NCBI GenBank assembly: GCA_964448115.1
Contig: CAYUVA010000017.1
Coordinates: 1 to 64,000, forward strand
Length of the DNA stretch: 64,000 nt
From: an uncultured bacterium
GTDB taxonomy: Bacteria > CAYUVA01
Reading direction: 5' to 3'
A program made the translations under genes and the position numbers. Below the pieces are notes generated by a model. The model was not told the DNA's origin. It saw only the letters and a list, made by a program, of their open reading frames with translations, and searched no databases. Positions 13,745-21,210 of the stretch are shown here, piece by piece. The first letter of the stretch is position 1. Each line of letters begins with the position of its first letter.

Positions 13745-14342
13745 GGGGGTGGACATAGCTTTCCAACTGTCATTACCGCGAAGGCGGGAATCCAGTTCCT
13801 ATCAACACTTACTTTGTGATCAAAATCAATTCTTCAGATCTGCCCAAGCCTTTTCTCAATTGACATTTATAGGTGGCTTCAATATTTTAAGATCTCGAGG
13901 TATTCTGATAGAAGGAAGAAATGCCGATGATGTAGCCGAGCGTTATCTGGGGGGATTTTACGCCAAGATGTACCTATCGCCATTGGATTTGCATTATGTA
14001 ATTTTCCCCTGTAACGGCGAAGTGGTAGGGAGTCTTCATTCGCCGGGAAGCGCTTTGCCGGTCATATTCTACAGATCTGCTGACATAAAGAATGAAAGAT
14101 TGACCACCGAGTACAAAACGCGCTTTGGCTTTAACATGCTGATCGCGATGATCGGCTCCTTCGCGGTCAATGCCATAGAGCGAAATTACCAGGTTGGCGA
14201 GAGCTACTCGCAGGGGGATATCCTGGGCAGGTTTCTGATCGGCTCCACGGTGCTGTTGATCTTTCCACCCGATTCAGCGGAGATGCTTATCAAGGTAGGC
14301 AAGAAGGTGAAGCTCTACCAGCCGCTAATCAAGCCGATATAA
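13734..14342 (+). pseudogene. psd: Phosphatidylserine decarboxylase C-terminal fragment (probably 5'-truncated)
   Basis: YLSPLDLH, KNER and GRFLIGSTV (self-cleavage GST motif) are present. The N-terminal SPxDG region is absent, and the first ~55 codons are non-homologous and include a REP-like palindrome. Confidence 0.6.
13768..13799 (+). repeat. TGTCA-tagged palindrome (dRS3/REP-like)
   Basis: TGTCATTACCGCGAAGGCGGGAATCCAGTTCC, 30/32 identical to 1998-2029. Confidence 0.8.
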
Positions 14343-14362: not shown

Positions 14363-17035
14363 ATGAATGAAAATGATATGAAGGATCAATCCGACTTCCC
14401 AAGAGATCCATTTCAAATATTGGATCCGGAAATAAGATGGGTGCCGTCTGCAAAAGAGCTGAAAGAAAAAGCTTATGATCACTTATTACCCCCTTTAGTG
14501 CATAAGATCCGTATTCAGGTTAAACAATGGCGGGATTTTAGGTATAGAGGCGCTTCGCCAACCTCGATTGCCCTGTTGAATTACTGGTTTAATACCGAAC
14601 ATAAGAACGGAGATGATTACTTTCAGTACTATTTCGCTCAGCGAGAAGCGGTTGAATCGGTAATATATTTATATGAGGTTGCAAAGGCTAGAGAAAAACA
14701 TGAACTAATCCAATTTGATTCATCAGAGCGAGTTAGCAAGGGTATGTTTCTAGGTAACTGGACTCGCTATGTTATAAAAATGGCGACAGGAACTGGAAAA
14801 ACTAAGGTAATTAGCCTTGTTTTGGCTTGGTCTTATTTCCATAAATTATATGAAGAGGATTCAGATCTTTCCAGAAATTTCCTTATAATTGCACCGAATA
14901 TTATAGTCTTAAACAGACTTAGAAAAGATTTCGATGATCCTACTATCTTCAGACAAGACCCAATTATCCCCGAAAATGGATATCAAGATAGAGATTGGAG
15001 AAATGATTTCCAGTTAACTTTGCATATACAGGATGAGCTAAAGCCTATAACAGGTGAAGGTAACCTCTTTCTTACCAATATTCATAGAGTTTATCTGAAT
15101 GAGCCATTTGCTACTATCGAAGAGGAATTTCTTGGCAAGAGACCTGCACCGGATGCTGATACCTCAAAGGGTGCTGACCTAGGCAAAGTTGTAAGAAGCG
15201 ATAAGATCAAAGACCTTGTCGTGTTCAACGACGAGGCACACCATATTCATGATGAACAATTGCAGTGGTTCCAAAGCATCGAGGATGTTAATAATCAGAT
15301 GAAACTGAAGACTGGGCATGGGATCGCACTTCAATTGGATACGACTGCGACACCAAAACATTCAGATGGATCTATCTTTGTGGAAACAATATGTGATTAC
15401 CCTCTCGTAGAGGCTATCAGACAGAATGTGGTGAAATCACCAGTATTGCCGGATGAGGTATCCCGAGCAAAAATAACTGAACAGACATCGGATAAGTTCG
15501 TCGAAAGATATAAGAATTTTATTGAACTAGGATATATTGAATGGGAGCAACAATATGAGGAACTTAAGAACCATAAAACACCCATCCTCTTTGTCATGAC
15601 AAATGTAACTAGCGAAGCTGATGAGACAAAAGAATATCTGGAAAGAATATATCCTAAGCTCAAAGGAGCTGTTCTAGTAATCCATACGAATAGAAGTGGC
15701 GATATTTCAGAAAGTGGATCAACCAAAAAGAAAAAAGAAGAACTGGAAAAACTGAGGGAAGCAGCAGATAACATAGACTCTGACCTCTCAAAGTACAAAG
15801 CAGTTGTATCTGTGATGATGCTCAGAGAAGGATGGGATGTTAAAAATGTAAGCACCATCGTAGGATTACGCCCCTATGGATCACCTGCAAGGATACTGCC
15901 GGAACAAACCCTAGGCAGGGGTTTGCGAAAGATGTTCGGCAGAGATGTAAAAGAAGAATTGGTGGTAGTTGGAACACCTGCTTTCATTGAATTCGTTGAA
16001 TCGATTAAAACCGAAGGGGTTCAGCTTGGCTACAGAAAAATGGGACCTAATGTCAAATCACAACAGCCTTTGATTATCGAAGTAGATTCCGATAATGCAA
16101 ATAAAGATATAGATAAACTTGATATTCAGATCCCAATTTTAACATCTCGAATATATAGAGAATATAAGAATCTTGAGGAAATTGATGTATATGCAATGAA
16201 AGTTGATCCTTTAACATTAAATGAATATACAGAAGAAGAACTTAAACAAATAATATTTAGAGATATCGACGATAATATCTCTCATACAACAGTTTTTTCC
16301 GATGCAAACATAGACTATAGGAATGTTATCGGTTTTTTCACTCAAAGCATAATGAAAGAAAACCGACTGGTAAGTGGATTTAATATCCTTTATCCGAAAG
16401 TGGAAGTATTTATTCGTATGAAACTATTCGGTAAAGAAGTTGACCTACAAGATCGACAGATAATTAGAAACCTTTCTGAAATAAATACAAGGGTTGCCAT
16501 TTTTACTGCTTTCAAAAATGCTATCAATGAGTTAACAATTAGAGATAAGGGTTCTGCTGAAGTTCGTAACTTTATTTCTTTGAAAAATACACGGCCAACT
16601 GTAGTTAATAATCAAAGATATCTAATACCTCAAAAAAGCATATTTAATAAAATAGTTGGAGATAGCGATTTTGAGCTTGAATTTGCTGCTTTCCTTGAAC
16701 AATGTAATGATATTATATCTTTTGCAAAAAACAATGAAAAAATTGTATTCAAAATAGAATACCAGGCTGATGATGGGAATATAAAATTATTTATACCTGA
16801 TTTCTTTGTTAAGGCAACCGAAAATGAACATTATATTATTGAGACAAAAGGAAGAGAAGATTTAGATGATATACGAAAAAGAAATCGCCTTATAACCTGG
16901 TGTAATGATGTGAACCATGTACAGGATAAAATTAAATATAATCCTCTTTATGTAAAACAAGAAATATGGGAAAAATACCGAGATAGCTTAAAGAACTTTA
17001 GAGATGTTATAGGGCTGGGAAAAATTAATGAATAA
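14363..17035 (+). CDS. res: Type III-like restriction enzyme Res subunit (SF2 helicase plus PD-(D/E)XK nuclease)
   Basis: YYFAQREAVE, MATGTGKT, DEAHH, TATP, LREGWDVKNV, EQTLGRGLR; C-terminal FIPDFFV..IIETKG; AT-rich. Confidence 0.88.
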   Translation: MNENDMKDQSDFPRDPFQILDPEIRWVPSAKELKEKAYDHLLPPLVHKIRIQVKQWRDFRYRGASPTSIALLNYWFNTEHKNGDDYFQYYFAQREAVESVIYLYEVAKAREKHELIQFDSSERVSKGMFLGNWTRYVIKMATGTGKTKVISLVLAWSYFHKLYEEDSDLSRNFLIIAPNIIVLNRLRKDFDDPTIFRQDPIIPENGYQDRDWRNDFQLTLHIQDELKPITGEGNLFLTNIHRVYLNEPFATIEEEFLGKRPAPDADTSKGADLGKVVRSDKIKDLVVFNDEAHHIHDEQLQWFQSIEDVNNQMKLKTGHGIALQLDTTATPKHSDGSIFVETICDYPLVEAIRQNVVKSPVLPDEVSRAKITEQTSDKFVERYKNFIELGYIEWEQQYEELKNHKTPILFVMTNVTSEADETKEYLERIYPKLKGAVLVIHTNRSGDISESGSTKKKKEELEKLREAADNIDSDLSKYKAVVSVMMLREGWDVKNVSTIVGLRPYGSPARILPEQTLGRGLRKMFGRDVKEELVVVGTPAFIEFVESIKTEGVQLGYRKMGPNVKSQQPLIIEVDSDNANKDIDKLDIQIPILTSRIYREYKNLEEIDVYAMKVDPLTLNEYTEEELKQIIFRDIDDNISHTTVFSDANIDYRNVIGFFTQSIMKENRLVSGFNILYPKVEVFIRMKLFGKEVDLQDRQIIRNLSEINTRVAIFTAFKNAINELTIRDKGSAEVRNFISLKNTRPTVVNNQRYLIPQKSIFNKIVGDSDFELEFAAFLEQCNDIISFAKNNEKIVFKIEYQADDGNIKLFIPDFFVKATENEHYIIETKGREDLDDIRKRNRLITWCNDVNHVQDKIKYNPLYVKQEIWEKYRDSLKNFRDVIGLGKINE

Positions 17036-17315
17036 AGCATATTTTGTATATATAATGACTAATAAGAATAATGCTGTTCTTTATACTGGAGTAACCAATA
17101 ATCTAAAACGAAGAATCTATGAACATAAAAATAAAATAATTCAGGGATTTACAAGCAGGTATAATATTGTGAAGCTCGTTTATTATGAAATGTATAATGA
17201 TATTTACATGGCAATTAACCGGGAAAAGCAGATTAAAGCAGGTCCAAGAAAGAAGAAAATTGATTTGATTAATGGCATGAATCCTGAGTGGAAGGATTTA
17301 TACGATGGTTTATAA
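17028..17315 (+). CDS. Small stand-alone GIY-YIG nuclease (YhbQ/UPF0213-like)
   Basis: FVYIMTN..VLYTGVTNNLKRRIYEHK, AINREKQIK, NPEWKDL; start overlaps the end of res. Confidence 0.9.
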   Translation: MNKAYFVYIMTNKNNAVLYTGVTNNLKRRIYEHKNKIIQGFTSRYNIVKLVYYEMYNDIYMAINREKQIKAGPRKKKIDLINGMNPEWKDLYDGL

Positions 17316-17331
17316 TGAGATTATGAGATAT

Positions 17332-17784
17332 GAGATTGCTTCGTCGCTACGCTCCTCGCAATGACAATGGCGTGAATGGTTGCTTCNNNNNNNNNNNNNN
17401 NNNNNNNNNNNNNNNNNNNNNNNNNNNNNNNNNNNNNNNNNNNNNNNNNNNNNNNNNNNNNNNNNNNNNNNNNNNNNNNNNNNNNNATCCCATTGTACTG
17501 TTATGGAGATTGCTTCGTCGCTACGCTCCTCGCAATGACAATGGCGTGAATGGTTGCTTCCCCCTTTCACTGTCATTGTGTCCCCCCACCTTGTCATTGT
17601 GTCCCCCCACCTTGTCATTGTGTCCCCCCACCTTGTCATTGCGAGCAAAGCGAAGCAATCCCATTGTACTGTTATGGAGATTGCTTCGTCGCTACGCTCC
17701 TCGCAATGACAAAGAAGGGAACCTCAATGACAAAGAATGGACTCGCAAAGACAACGAAAGGAACCGCGTTGGCAAAGAAGGCTT
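17332..17784. repeat. Array of TGTCA-tagged REP-like palindromes with 21-bp tandem flanks (contains assembly gap)
   Basis: Identical 35-mer GAGATTGCTTCGTCGCTACGCTCCTCGCAATGACA at 17332, 17506 and 17677 (171-bp period); inverted partner TGTCATTGCGAGCAAAGCGAAGCAATC at 17634; TGTCATTGTGTCCCCCCACCT x3 (17571-17633); degenerate 21-mers 17701-17784. Confidence 0.9.
17387..17486. other. Assembly gap (100 N) inside the repeat array
   Basis: Run of N flanked on both sides by copies of the 171-bp unit, so probably a collapsed tandem repeat. Confidence 0.95.
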
Positions 17785-17861
17785 GGGCATTGATGGACAT
17801 AATATCAAACAAATATGATATAATATTCGGTAACTACCACAAAAGAAAGGAACAATAAAAA

Positions 17862-20800
17862 ATGACAAAAATAAATCTTACCGATAAAGAAAAGGAAATC
17901 TTAATCAGCTACATCAAACAAGGTAGAGCAATACCCAAGAAATATATATACAAACTCTATGCCGACCAGGAGGATGTCTTCCTGTTCTGGAATGGTAGAA
18001 ATGAGAATGTAATAAACGCAGTCCTTCCATTCCACTCCATCGAACATATAGACGAACCCAGAGAGGATTCATCCGTCAATCCACTGCTCGACTCAATGAC
18101 CGGCAGGCAGATTAAAGGCTGGACAAACAAGCTGATCTGGGGCGACAACAAGCTGGTGCTATCATCGCTAGTCAACGGACCAATGCGCGAGGATATCGAA
18201 AGAGAAGGCGGACTCAAGCTAATCTATATAGATCCGCCGTTCGCTGTCGGAGCTGACTTCTCGCACAACATCAAAATAAACGGAGAGGATGTTACCAAGA
18301 AGCAATCGGTCATCGAGGAGATAGCCTACAGAGATACATGGGGCAGGGGGATATCTTCATACCTGACAATGATGTACGAGAGATTGAAGCTCATGCACCA
18401 ACTGCTCGCAGAGGATGGGAGTATTTATGTGCACATAGATTGGAGAATCAATATCTATATGAGGTTGATACTAGATGATATCTTTGGCAAATATAATTTC
18501 AACAGAGAGATTACATGGAATACAGGATGGCCATTAGGATTTAAAACCTCTACAGATAATTGGATAAAACAACATGATACAATCTTTTATTATAGGAGAA
18601 ATAATAATTATTATATTTTTAATAAGCAATATATTCCGTATGAGATAGATTACCAAAAACGAGCTAGGAAGGATCCTGATGGGAGATTATGGGTTGATCA
18701 AAGTTTGGGTTATATCTCTGATGAAAAATTAGAACAAATGAAAAAAGAAGGAAGAGTTTTCCGGACCAAGAGAGGTGGCTGGAGGAAAAAACAATATTTG
18801 GATGAGATGCCGGGATTAATGGTTGGTGATATATGGACAGATATTGATCCTATAAATTCACAAGCATCTGAGAACCTCTTTTTCCCCACCCAAAAGCCTG
18901 AAGCTCTTTTAGAGCGTATCATCAAGGCATCCTCTAATGAGGGTGATCTGGTAGCTGATTTTTTCTGTGTTGCTGCGGGGACGAGAGTGTTGGTGCAATC
19001 CCCCACCCCAGCCCTCCCCGTGAACGGGGAGGGAGCAGATTCCCCCCCGTTCACGGGGGGGATCAAGGGGGGGGGATATTCCCCCCCGTTCACGGGGGGG
19101 ATCAAGGGGGGGGGATATTCCCCCCCGTTCACGGGGGGGATCAAGGGGGGGGATATTGCCCCCCGTTCACGGGAGGGATCAAGGGGGGGGATATTTCCCC
19201 CCCGTTCACGGGAGGGATCAAGGGGGGGGATATTTCCCCCCCGTTCACGGGGGGGATTAAGGGGGGGGATACTCCCCCCCCCACATTCCAACGAAAACAT
19301 ATACCTCCTCAACATAGAACAAATCCAACCTGGCGACTATGTTTTTTCGCATGATGGTTTTGCCCATAAAGTTATCAGAACAATCTCAAGGCAATACAAA
19401 GGATTGATGATCGGCATAAAACATAATCTAACTGATTCCACGCTTTGGTTAACGGCAGATCATAAGGTTTTAGCAAAAATTCGCCCTCGTACTTTAGGCG
19501 GAAAGCGTGATTGGAGTGCTGGTCCAATTGAAAATCTGGATCGTAGAAAAAAGCTGAGGAATAAGGCAACTGAAACTGAGAGGCTTTTATGGAAAAGAAT
19601 ATGCAGCAGACAATTGGGTTATAAATTTCGAAGACAACATCCAATTGGACCGTATATTGCTGATTTTTATTGTCGAGATGCCCATTTGGTAGTCGAACTT
19701 GATGGAGATTCACATTTTACCCCTGAATCGAAAGTTTATGATAACGAGCGAGATTTGTACATGGAATCACTTGGCATAGAAGTGATACGGATAAATAATT
19801 CAGAGGTAAAACATAACATTGAGGGAGTACTTCAAGTGCTTTATTCTAAATGTGTTGAGAGATGTGAATCAAAAGAAGATGCCAAATGGGTCGAAGCACG
19901 CAATCTTAAGCCTGGTGATTTAGTTTTTTGGGGAATTGAGCAAGAGTCATTAGAAATCAAGTCGATTGAAAGGAAATACACTGAAGAATGTGTTTATGAT
20001 ATTGAAGTGAATGATTCGCACTCATTCATTACCGATGTTTGTACGGTTCATAATTGCGGTTCAGGGACTACAGCAGCAGTGGCAGAGAAGCTGGGTCGCA
20101 AGTGGATCGCTTGTGATCTGGGACGCTTTGCCATACATACGACACGAAAACGAATGATTCAAGTCCAGCGCGAACTGAAGGCGGAAGGTAAGAATTTCCG
20201 CGCCTTTGAGGTGCTGAATCTAGGTAAATATGAGCGTCAGTTTTTTATGGGGATACCCGCCGATATACCCAAGGATCAACAGGAACAACTTCTTGCGGAA
20301 AAAGAAGAAAAGTATATCAAACTCGTATTGGAGGGTTACTCTGCACAACCGATCAAAGGTTATCGATTATTGCATGGTAAAAAATCAAATCGAATGGTTC
20401 ATGTCGGTCCTCTAAGCGTCCCAGTAACTAAAACATTGGTTGAAGAAATCTTCAACGAATGCAAAGAAAAACTTGTAACTCAGGTCGATGTACTCGGATT
20501 CGAGTTCGAGATGGGATTAGTTCCATTCATACAAGATGAGCTACAAAAAGAAGGAGTTTCAGTCAGATTCAGGAGCATACCAAGGGAAGTTTTCGATAAA
20601 AGAGCAGTGGAAAAAGGACAAGTCAAATTTTACGATGTTGCTTATCTTGAAGTACAACCTCATATCATCGGTCGAAAAGTCAAAATTGAGCTAACTAATT
20701 TCGTAACTAATTATACGCAAGATGATCTGGAAGAGTTGGAGAAGAGTCTTAAAAAAGGCAGTTCTAAGGTAATAATTGAAGATGGAAAAATTATCAAATT

Positions 20801-21128
20801 GAGCAAGGATAAAAATGGAATTCTGCAAAGAGAACTTTTAACTGATAACTGGGTAGATTGGATTGACTATTGGGCGGTTGATTTCGATTATCAAAATAAA
20901 AAAGAGATTATCCGAATAGGTAAGAATGGAGCAGATAAAGAAATATGGACAGGTAATTATATATTTGAAAATGAATGGCAATCTTTCAGAACAAAAAAGA
21001 ATCCAAATATTGAACTTATAACTTCCTCACATCTTTATGACAAACCTGGGAATTATAAAATTCTTGTAAAAGTGGTGGATATCTTAGGCATTGATACCTC
21101 AAAGATAATTGAGATCAATCTTGTTTAG
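17862..21128 (+). CDS. mod: Type III-like Mod subunit, beta-class amino-methyltransferase, intein-containing
   Basis: NKLIWGDN, motif IV LIYIDPPF, PTQKPEALLERII, motif I DFF/CGSGTT split by an intein; predicted spliced product 725 aa. Confidence 0.9.
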   Translation: MTKINLTDKEKEILISYIKQGRAIPKKYIYKLYADQEDVFLFWNGRNENVINAVLPFHSIEHIDEPREDSSVNPLLDSMTGRQIKGWTNKLIWGDNKLVLSSLVNGPMREDIEREGGLKLIYIDPPFAVGADFSHNIKINGEDVTKKQSVIEEIAYRDTWGRGISSYLTMMYERLKLMHQLLAEDGSIYVHIDWRINIYMRLILDDIFGKYNFNREITWNTGWPLGFKTSTDNWIKQHDTIFYYRRNNNYYIFNKQYIPYEIDYQKRARKDPDGRLWVDQSLGYISDEKLEQMKKEGRVFRTKRGGWRKKQYLDEMPGLMVGDIWTDIDPINSQASENLFFPTQKPEALLERIIKASSNEGDLVADFFCVAAGTRVLVQSPTPALPVNGEGADSPPFTGGIKGGGYSPPFTGGIKGGGYSPPFTGGIKGGDIAPRSREGSRGGIFPPRSREGSRGGIFPPRSRGGLRGGILPPPHSNENIYLLNIEQIQPGDYVFSHDGFAHKVIRTISRQYKGLMIGIKHNLTDSTLWLTADHKVLAKIRPRTLGGKRDWSAGPIENLDRRKKLRNKATETERLLWKRICSRQLGYKFRRQHPIGPYIADFYCRDAHLVVELDGDSHFTPESKVYDNERDLYMESLGIEVIRINNSEVKHNIEGVLQVLYSKCVERCESKEDAKWVEARNLKPGDLVFWGIEQESLEIKSIERKYTEECVYDIEVNDSHSFITDVCTVHNCGSGTTAAVAEKLGRKWIACDLGRFAIHTTRKRMIQVQRELKAEGKNFRAFEVLNLGKYERQFFMGIPADIPKDQQEQLLAEKEEKYIKLVLEGYSAQPIKGYRLLHGKKSNRMVHVGPLSVPVTKTLVEEIFNECKEKLVTQVDVLGFEFEMGLVPFIQDELQKEGVSVRFRSIPREVFDKRAVEKGQVKFYDVAYLEVQPHIIGRKVKIELTNFVTNYTQDDLEELEKSLKKGSSKVIIEDGKIIKLSKDKNGILQRELLTDNWVDWIDYWAVDFDYQNKKEIIRIGKNGADKEIWTGNYIFENEWQSFRTKKNPNIELITSSHLYDKPGNYKILVKVVDILGIDTSKIIEINLV
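18999..19282 (+). repeat. In-frame poly-C/poly-G hairpin array inside the intein (one inverted unit plus six ~39-bp tandem units)
   Basis: Unit TCCCCCCCG-TTCA-CGGGGGGG-ATCAA-G8/9-ATAT starting at 19041, 19080, 19119, 19157 and onward; preceded by the inverted form CCCTCCCCG-TGAA-CGGGGAGGG. Confidence 0.92.
19542..19850 (+). other. DUF559 (Vsr-like) endonuclease domain within the intein
   Basis: RRKKLRNKATETERLLWKRI..LGYKFRRQHPIGPYIADFYC..LVVELDGDSH..YDNERDLYMESLGIEVIRINNSEV..NIEGVL. Confidence 0.9.
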
Positions 21129-21210
21129 ATAATCCTATAAAAGATATGATTCGACGGAGACTCAACATCTATTAGATGTCTCCTTATGGAAAACGGGTAT
21201 TTTTCAAGTC

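Follow-up and report, generated by a model that had tools for sequence, protein, structure and literature searches.

A class-1 intein with an in-frame DUF559 domain in motif I of a Type III Mod methyltransferase

Vsr-like (EDxHD) homing endonucleases (HENs) are described, in the available portions of two sources (PMC2677866, PMC3239194), as free-standing open reading frames (ORFs) situated between the halves of split inteins or in group I introns. The fractured-gene model of Dassa et al. 2009, as given in the same portion of PMC2677866, foresees the integration of an endonuclease, in frame, into an intein. An actinophage survey of 2025 (bioRxiv 10.1101/2025.01.02.630785) states, in its available part, that intein-linked Vsr-like HENs had been reported before only with split inteins, and adds Vsr-like HENs that are encoded antisense; that part lists PF01555 methylases as actinobacteriophage intein hosts, and the hosts it gives for non-canonical HENs are DNA polymerase, minor capsid, terminase and thymidylate synthase, not methylases. 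The subject here is a contiguous intein with a DUF559 domain in its endonuclease position, which interrupts the mod gene of a Type III restriction-modification (R-M) locus in an uncultured bacterium (assembly GCA_964448115.1); the locus lies within positions 1 to 64,000 of contig CAYUVA010000017.1, and this whole stretch of 64,000 nucleotides (nt) is called the window below. To our knowledge, every intein endonuclease reported in frame until now has been of the LAGLIDADG or the HNH type.

In the open full-text literature, DUF559 inteins received one passing mention, a "DUF559-containing gene" among the intein-containing genes of two Thermosynechococcus strains, which carries no further description in the available part of that source (PMC9403480); subscription journals and InBase lay outside the search, and an earlier description may exist.

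The intein in mod

The features within mod are as follows (aa, amino acids; pLDDT, predicted local distance difference test score; AF2, AlphaFold2; TRF, Tandem Repeats Finder).

17862..21128, + strand: mod ORF, 1088 aa, intact
17862..18965, + strand: mod N-extein, aa 1-368, with GDLVADFF at its C-terminal end; holds DPPF (motif IV) together with the variable region (PADLOC MTase_III, orthologue alignment)
18966..20054, + strand: class-1 intein, 363 aa, equal to Mod aa 369-731 (exact alignment gap, AF2, Foldseek, relatives)
18966..18995, + strand: intein block A (CVAAGTRVLV), whose C1 is the nucleophile (pLDDT 98 over the first ten residues; C[VL]RKGT in canonical relatives)
18996..19301, + strand: disordered Pro/Gly-rich loop, intein aa 11-112 (102 aa), from block A to the next Hint strand (pLDDT <50 at 29-107)
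19039..19280, + strand: tandem array, 39-nt unit in 6.3 copies (TRF)
19452..19463, + strand: intein block B, T163-A-D-H166 (T163 and H166 invariant in 16 family sequences)
19539..19850, + strand: DUF559 (Vsr-fold, PD-(D/E)xK-type) nuclease domain, intein aa 192-295, Mod residues 560-663 (Pfam PF04480)
19884..20054, + strand: C-terminal Hint half; block F is VYDIEVNDSHSF, block G VCTVHN (TIGR01443, partial PF14890, pLDDT >90 at strands 307-362)
20055..21128, + strand: mod C-extein, aa 732-1088 and stop, its first residue the +1 Cys of CGSGTT (rest of motif I) (orthologue alignment)

The Mod protein reads GDLVADFF / CVAAGTRV ... VCTVHN / CGSGTT around nt 18966-20054, and removal of the 363 aa gives a Mod of 725 aa with F-C-G-S-G, the F-x-G-x-G motif I for S-adenosylmethionine (AdoMet), restored; motif IV (DPPF, Mod aa 124-127) precedes motif I. 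The boundaries were set by comparison with orthologues. The N-extein (residues 1-368) was searched against 5.8 billion proteins, 8000 candidates were scored and the best 120 were listed; these comprised the window's own protein and 119 others of 652-764 aa, drawn from many phyla and 56-68% identical. Neither the insert nor a DUF559 domain occurred in any of the 119 orthologues listed. When 12 of them were aligned with Mod, the gap coincided in all 12 with exactly the 363 insert residues, so excision restores F-x-G-x-G; their intein-free junction was DFF followed by CGSGTT (10/12) or SGSGTT (2/12). The exteins keep every position that is invariant among the aligned orthologues, and the C-extein is conserved over its full length, both against the intein-free orthologues and against the Mod of a related intein-bearing locus (L050, below). 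Pfam matched PF01555 (N6_N4_Mtase) to Mod with E 2.9e-38, in two stretches. The original prediction, made from the letters of the window, had placed an insert of 363 aa in motif I, and both its length and the restoration of FxGxG upon excision agree with the exact gap in the 12 aligned orthologues. It had also proposed a search for intein-free orthologues and the mapping of the insertion site, which yielded 119 of 119 listed proteins without the insert and the junction DFF/CGSGTT; orthologues that all keep the insert, which it had named as evidence to the contrary, were not what was found, since none of those listed carries it.

The residues required of a class-1 intein form a complete set in the insert: C1, T163-x-x-H166, H362-N363 and the +1 Cys. 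Across 16 aligned family members T163, H166, D345, H352, H362 and N363 were invariant, and the +1 Cys was at least 90% conserved; all the Hint splicing blocks that had been named from the sequence were present, with T163, H166, H362 and N363 unchanged in the 16 relatives. The C-terminal intein model of NCBIfam (TIGR01443, intein_Cterm) matched with 20.1 bits, above its cut-off of 15.6. An AF2 model of the intein, built on 58 family sequences, had a mean pLDDT of 79.7, with values >90 at residues 1-11 and 112-363 and <50 at 29-107; in it, the β-strands lie at 7-11, 112-171 and 307-362 and surround an α/β domain (189-301). Foldseek against the PDB gave 14 matches at E<=0.001; it matched many inteins, including gp41-1 (template modelling score, TM, 0.73), RadA, RecA, DnaB and Prp8, together with bacterial intein-like (BIL) domains. 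A PDB search by sequence returned weak matches to two inteins, besides the DUF559 structure 3hrl. The insert is a genuine class-1 intein by its exact insertion, its Hint fold and its conserved residues, and a chance origin of the block pattern is not plausible. Splicing competence of the window copy is predicted from these same residues.

The enclosed domain matched PF04480 (DUF559) with 105.9 bits against a cut-off of 20.6 (E 4.9e-30 to 1.3e-30), over profile positions 5-107 of 109. This coverage, and the position of the domain between the Hint halves in the AF2 model, upheld the claim that a complete DUF559 domain lies in frame where the endonuclease is expected. The solved DUF559 structure 3hrl was matched both by sequence (E 1.4e-17) and by Foldseek (TM 0.90, root-mean-square deviation 1.6, 38% identity). 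Among the 58 sequences D233 and D246 were invariant, while E244, H250, D259 and R262 were at least 90% conserved. Similarity also extended to 3r3p, the catalytic domain of I-Bth0305I (Foldseek TM 0.76, E 3.8e-3, 21% identity), and D233, H250 and D259 share the spacing of D196, H213 and D222 in the available part of PMC3239194, a correspondence of spacing only and not of residue-by-residue alignment. No NUMOD family was found among Pfam matches at E<=0.1. Because NUMOD motifs are absent from the matches and identity to I-Bth0305I is only 21%, the domain was not filed in the EDxHD family proper; by its sequence it is taken to be an ordinary DUF559 domain, outside that family, which probably works like an EDxHD enzyme. 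The description of the nuclease as Vsr-like (EDxHD) fits in fold (Vsr-type, 3r3p at TM 0.76) and is not supported as to membership, with NUMOD not found and 21% identity. Its activity and its target are predictions. The intein was also considered as a known defence protein and rejected, no PADLOC model matching the intein alone at E<=1e-5; the second defence nuclease, which had been offered as an alternative role, found no support.

A family of DUF559 inteins at one site

The intein was compared by phmmer, exhaustively, with 1.84 billion cluster representatives. At E<=1e-30 there were 91 matches, most of which span the Hint half after the loop, DUF559 and the C-terminal Hint half; matches of lower rank were stand-alone DUF559 proteins (120-140 aa), with ~50% identity over the nuclease domain only. 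A Pfam scan of 40 relatives found DUF559 in all 40 and PF01555 in eight, where the PF01555 match was interrupted at or close to profile position 188-190, the very motif-I site of the window intein. The junctions of canonical relatives read DPT/C[VL]RKGT ... VHN/CGSGTT. At E<=1e-20 there were 196 long proteins (637-2000 aa), 39-59% identical to the window intein, from Planktothrix agardhii, Microcystis, Synechococcus/Thermostichus, Roseiflexus castenholzii, Nitrospira, Chloroflexi, Armatimonadetes and Gemmataceae. Their source names were "DUF559 domain-containing protein", 'very-short-patch-repair endonuclease/DNA modification methylase' or methyltransferase, and the word 'intein' occurred in none of the names shown for long relatives.

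A genome scan covered one genome per GTDB species with a query alignment of 16 sequences, and 80 of 115 confirmed loci were kept; the window's own genome is outside these 80. Loci L001-L062 are relatives of the window intein, 38-57% identical over the best aligned segment. The remaining 18 (L063-L080) were set aside as other inteins or unrelated sequences, most of them matching only the last ~50-70 residues and having other junctions; L063 and L067 match over longer stretches (L067 over residues 116-300) but at E>=4e-6, and L067 and L076 are without the HN junction. Among the 62 relatives, HN/C stood at the C junction in 57, followed almost always by GSGTT. A named phylum was available for 54 of the 62, giving 14 phyla, of which Chloroflexota was the commonest (20). 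Where both junctions were available (34 alleles), the reconstituted empty site was DLVxDxx/CGSGTTA in every case. The earlier treatment of the case as singular does not hold, given that 196 long proteins and 62 species genomes share the family; the window intein is a new, divergent member of a widespread family that bears no intein label and is apparently undescribed.

The interrupted methylases belong to more than one subfamily. A Mod homologous to that of the window, with the same intein and followed by Res, was present at L024, L050, L033 and L016; at L050, Mod was 38-39% identical to the window protein and Res 36% identical over 837 aa. In the commoner methylase subfamily, which has AYVAEQWG in the C-extein, a ResIII neighbour was present in three of seven loci. 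Taking both subfamilies together, seven of the 14 intein-bearing loci inspected had a Res neighbour; the order was mod then res at L024, L050, L033, L016, L045 and L017, and res lay upstream of mod at L041 and in the window.

A quick maximum-likelihood tree was inferred from the last ~250 intein residues (52 rows); 11 of the 62 loci, having no single uninterrupted match from residue <=125 to >=360, were left out. The nine inteins of the window's Mod subfamily need nine label changes on this tree, at least five of them required by the starred branches taken by themselves, and labels that have been shuffled fit no less well. Intein relationships therefore do not follow extein subfamily. Two pairs of inteins were near-identical (L007/L017 and L012/L015; branch lengths 0.01-0.05) and come from genomes labelled as different lineages (Bacterium HR16, Bacteroidota), those of L007/L017 being different phyla; they represent either recent transfer or mis-binned contigs of metagenome-assembled genomes. 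Site-specific spread, scatter across exteins and decay are the signatures to be expected of a homing cycle, for which they are indirect support; transfer of whole R-M genes would give some of them.

Several relatives depart from the common arrangement. A PF01555 protein of 1445 aa (P0271, L040:5077-9411) has a second DUF559 domain at aa 983-1088, and an Eco57I/N6_Mtase-type enzyme (P0227) has two; these double-DUF559 methylases may be further intein sites or fusions. In P0124, VHN is followed by CGCGT and the downstream part matches Mrr_cat/NA-iREase1, not PF01555, so that its C-extein context may be different. There are also extein-less Hint-DUF559-Hint ORFs of 250-350 aa, in which Met and then G or S replaces C1 and the terminal HN is lost (P0131, P0136, P0140, P0145, P0149, P0152-P0154, P0160, P0162, P0165, P0167, P0179, P0183, P0188, P0195, P0197, P0204, P0234, P0258 and others); these are either decayed remnants or a free-standing family of intein-derived nucleases.

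The repeat loop and the surroundings of mod

The loop that follows block A had no place in the earlier account of this intein. In the window its G-C content is 0.66, against 0.38 in the rest of the intein and 0.39 in the exteins. Each unit of 39 nt contains a C7-GTTCAC-G7 hairpin and a G8-9 tract; the direct repeats are spaced at 39, 39, 38, 39 and 39 nt, and 17 G or C homopolymers of 6-9 nt occur in the array. At 19145, at a tract of G8 in place of G9, the repeat peptide switches frame from SPPFTGGIKGGGY to PRSREGSRGGIF; the overall reading frame is nevertheless restored, and a +1 or +2 shift on entering the array would lead to a stop at 19258 or 19352. The array folds with -104.7 kcal/mol (z -6.35 against shuffled sequence). 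The hairpin core occurs seven times in the 64 kb, always at 19016-19252, with 0.02 occurrences expected, and a dispersed repeat of the window was rejected as an origin for the 39-nt unit, both the count of cores and a repeat search giving no copy outside the loop. A known RNA family at 17000-20100 was likewise rejected; a permissive Rfam search gave 30 weak matches, all far below gathering scores and drawn by the GC hairpins. Two minus-strand ORFs within the intein (18710-19315, 201 aa; 19375-19713, 112 aa) were judged to be a side effect of GC-rich repeats in which stops are scarce.

A long Pro/Gly-rich tandem-repeat loop was present at the equivalent position in all 20 full-length relatives inspected, with units that differ and are often variants of PSPFTGR(V/A)G(E/V)G. 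Over 35 loci the median loop length was 62 aa, the longest cited being 149 aa (L030); L002 was mis-parsed in this measurement, and its separate inspection gives 83 aa. In the same 35 loci the G-C content of the loop was 0.68, against 0.53 in the rest of the intein. Of the 35 loops, 34 held GC hairpins with a stem of at least 6 bp; counting overlapping registers throughout, their density was 36 per kb in the loop and 0.77 per kb elsewhere. Many relatives' contigs start within the loop, as is expected because repeats are hard to assemble. Where block A was found upstream (39 loci), frame was kept across the loop in 35. The repeat loop is a hallmark of the whole intein family.

Two loci have a second GC-rich repeat insertion in the C-terminal Hint loop, after the PGDxV strand (L050:5080-8106 and L054). 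In P0213 the loop after block A is short and Pro/Gly hairpin-type segments stand on both sides of DUF559, as if the nuclease cassette had arrived with its flanking hairpins.

Most simply, the repeat loop is a tolerated passenger in a disordered part of the protein that is removed with the intein. It is improbable that the loop is a conserved functional module: such a module might act as a contingency locus, in which slippage of G/C tracts shifts the frame and switches Mod and Res off and on, or it might control, as hairpin DNA or RNA, the expression or mobility of the nuclease, or do both. A comparable role in expression or mobility has been proposed for the hairpins that precede Vsr-like endonuclease ORFs at fractured-gene loci. 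If the loop were a contingency locus, a mobile intein would bring phase variation to the restriction systems that it invades, and on that reading no earlier intein class would have been described whose in-frame homing nuclease has a Vsr fold (DUF559). A hairpin-repeat loop common to the whole family could prove to be a switch of a novel type.

The remaining features of the locus are as follows.

14363..17035, + strand: res, 890 aa, restriction subunit of the Type III system, paired with the interrupted Mod (Pfam, PADLOC)
17313, 17487 and 17658: 64-nt repeat, three copies, between res and mod
17388-17486: N-run (assembly gap), between res and mod
17571-17641 and 17702-17781: two 21-nt tandem arrays, between res and mod

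The Type III context of the original prediction was confirmed, with PADLOC assigning Mod to MTase_III (PDLC03633, 9.5e-114, in two stretches) and the upstream gene of 890 aa to REase_III (3e-17); Pfam found ResIII (5.6e-16) in the latter and a weak RE_endonuc match (2.2e-4) below its cut-off. The end of res lies 827 nt upstream of mod, and the order is res, a GIY-YIG ORF of 95 aa (Pfam 2.6e-16) that overlaps the end of res, the repeats with the N-run, and mod; the ORF, the repeats and the N-run together fall in 17028-17860. The res-mod block (14400-21200) has a G-C content of 0.28-0.41 save in the intein loop, against 0.45-0.53 in the flanks, where the genes are of housekeeping type (Lpt, glycosyltransferases, ECF/ABC transporter); because it is more AT-rich than its flanks, the block suggests a horizontally acquired island. 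A palindromic GC-rich repeat of 33 nt was present in two copies with 94% identity, at 1997-2029 and at 13767-13799, the latter just upstream of res.

Proposed mechanism, alternatives and known systems

It is considered likely that this is a class-1 intein in motif I of Mod that bears a DUF559 homing nuclease, and that splicing yields the active Mod and licenses Res. The Mod precursor of 1088 aa would be translated, and the Hint domain would excise the intein of 363 aa by means of C1, T163/H166, N363 and C+1, joining DFF to CGSGTT in a Mod of 725 aa with its Rossmann motif intact. Type III Res depends on Mod for DNA recognition; because of this dependence restriction should wait on splicing, only spliced Mod being able to methylate DNA and, as the DNA-recognising partner, to license Res. 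The freed Hint-DUF559 protein would then act as a homing endonuclease, cutting intein-free methylase DNA that encodes DLVxDxx/CGSGTT, whose repair would copy the intein in; a homing role is proposed because of the site-specific distribution.

Several observations weigh against this account. The Intein_splicing profile PF14890 scored 22.5-25.3 bits against a cut-off of 35.8, over its C-terminal part only, and no N-terminal intein model was among the listed Pfam and NCBIfam matches. The profile check that had been proposed for the Hint and DUF559 domains gave a divided result, DUF559 and TIGR01443 passing their cut-offs and PF14890 falling short (25.3 against 35.8); stronger evidence for intein identity is given by structure and comparison. 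The loop of 102 low-complexity residues lies inside the Hint domain, has no structure in the AF2 model, and could slow or block folding. The exact frame of the array rests on a single assembly, because an array so rich in homopolymers is prone to error in sequencing and assembly. Not every copy in the family is functional: L034, L035, L047, L051 and L054 are decayed alleles with broken exteins or lost HN, and four of the 39 loci have a frameshift in the loop (L014, L019, L022 and L048), where the allele could be truly frameshifted, could stand in an 'off' state, or could owe the shift to a homopolymer assembly error. The best relative of the window intein was only 56% identical and its terminal branch is long (0.76); with a long private branch and no close relative, neither recent mobility nor the time of arrival of the window copy can be inferred. 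Finally, no demonstrated biochemical activity of DUF559 was citable.

The alternative that survives best, though it is unlikely, accepts splicing and denies homing: DUF559 could be a relic that has lost its activity, could serve as a DNA-binding module, or could be a nickase that acts for the host after its release, for instance in repair or defence. The ~50% identity to stand-alone DUF559 proteins, which are not known as mobile, would suit this, as would the extein-less Hint-DUF559 ORFs without C1 and HN; Vsr itself is a nickase, according to the available part of PMC3239194. However, catalytic-type residues are conserved across 58 sequences, and no PADLOC model matches the intein; moreover, the intein occupies strictly one site in unrelated methylase subfamilies and in 14 named phyla, the types of extein are scattered over the intein tree, and near-identical inteins occur in different phyla (L007/L017).

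It is more doubtful that the intein is real by descent and the window copy dead, its 102-aa expansion blocking splicing in a mod gene and Type III system that are inactive and decaying. An array placed inside the splicing domain, for which AF2 predicts no structure, the GIY-YIG ORF, repeat families and assembly gap between res and mod, and the decayed or frameshifted alleles among relatives would all be in keeping with such an end. Yet the ORF of 1088 aa is intact with all splicing and nuclease residues present, the exteins keep all positions that are invariant in orthologues, loops of comparable or greater length (up to 149 aa, L030) occur in relatives with intact exteins, and 35 of 39 loops are in frame, implying selection on read-through. 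That the insert is a permanent, non-splicing domain of a Mod-nuclease fusion, for instance a built-in restriction or repair nuclease, is hardly credible, for although sources name the relatives as fusions and the general intein profile is below cut-off, the insert has a Hint fold, interrupts the Rossmann fold at its F-x-G-x-G loop, starts with Cys and ends in His-Asn before another Cys (invariant or nearly so in the family), and is dispensed with by 119 of 119 listed orthologues.

With a spliced intein bearing a homing nuclease as the preferred account, several consequences follow. A contiguous intein with DUF559 in frame adds a further nuclease type to those of inteins. The DUF559 family, which is very large and of unknown function, gains a concrete candidate activity, namely site-specific cleavage at the coding sequence of methylase motif I. 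The inteins are abundant in cyanobacteria, Chloroflexota, Planctomycetota and others, and the methylases that bear them look like fusion proteins because the source names shown never say intein; genome-based R-M inventories may misread them. The arrangement would be one selfish element within another, in which methylation, and by extension restriction, is gated by protein splicing. These inteins and their nucleases are candidate tools for protein and genome engineering.

Among known systems, canonical class-1 inteins (LAGLIDADG, such as PI-SceI; HNH in some phage inteins) share with the window the Hint fold, C1, TxxH and HN with a +1 nucleophile, the nuclease between the splicing halves, a DNA-metabolism enzyme interrupted at a conserved active-site motif, and a sporadic distribution; the window intein differs in having a DUF559/Vsr-fold nuclease of PD-(D/E)xK type, not LAGLIDADG or HNH, and in adding a long GC-rich tandem-repeat loop after block A. 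The EDxHD/Vsr-like homing endonucleases resemble the window domain in catalytic fold (Vsr-type; 3r3p at TM 0.76) and in their association with inteins, but those enzymes are free-standing and bear NUMOD, whereas the window domain forms part of a contiguous intein, in frame, and NUMOD was not found in it by Pfam. Phage methylase inteins have the same host family (N6/N4 methylases), the host in the window being a cellular Type III Mod and the intein having a DUF559 nuclease.

Phasevarions are phase-variable Type III mod genes, and the window resembles them in having slippage-prone simple repeats within a Type III mod ORF (17 G/C tracts of 6-9 nt); in the window, however, the repeats are inside the intein and not the extein, and in its single assembly length variation was not seen. 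The nearest counterparts are the DUF559-intein relatives in databases (Planktothrix agardhii, Microcystis, Roseiflexus castenholzii, Nitrospira), which have the same intein, the same motif-I site and a repeat-bearing loop; in comparison with these, the window copy is on a long private branch with its array homogenised to C7/G7-9 tracts, and it has res before mod, with repeats inserted between the two genes, unlike six of the seven related loci with a Res neighbour.

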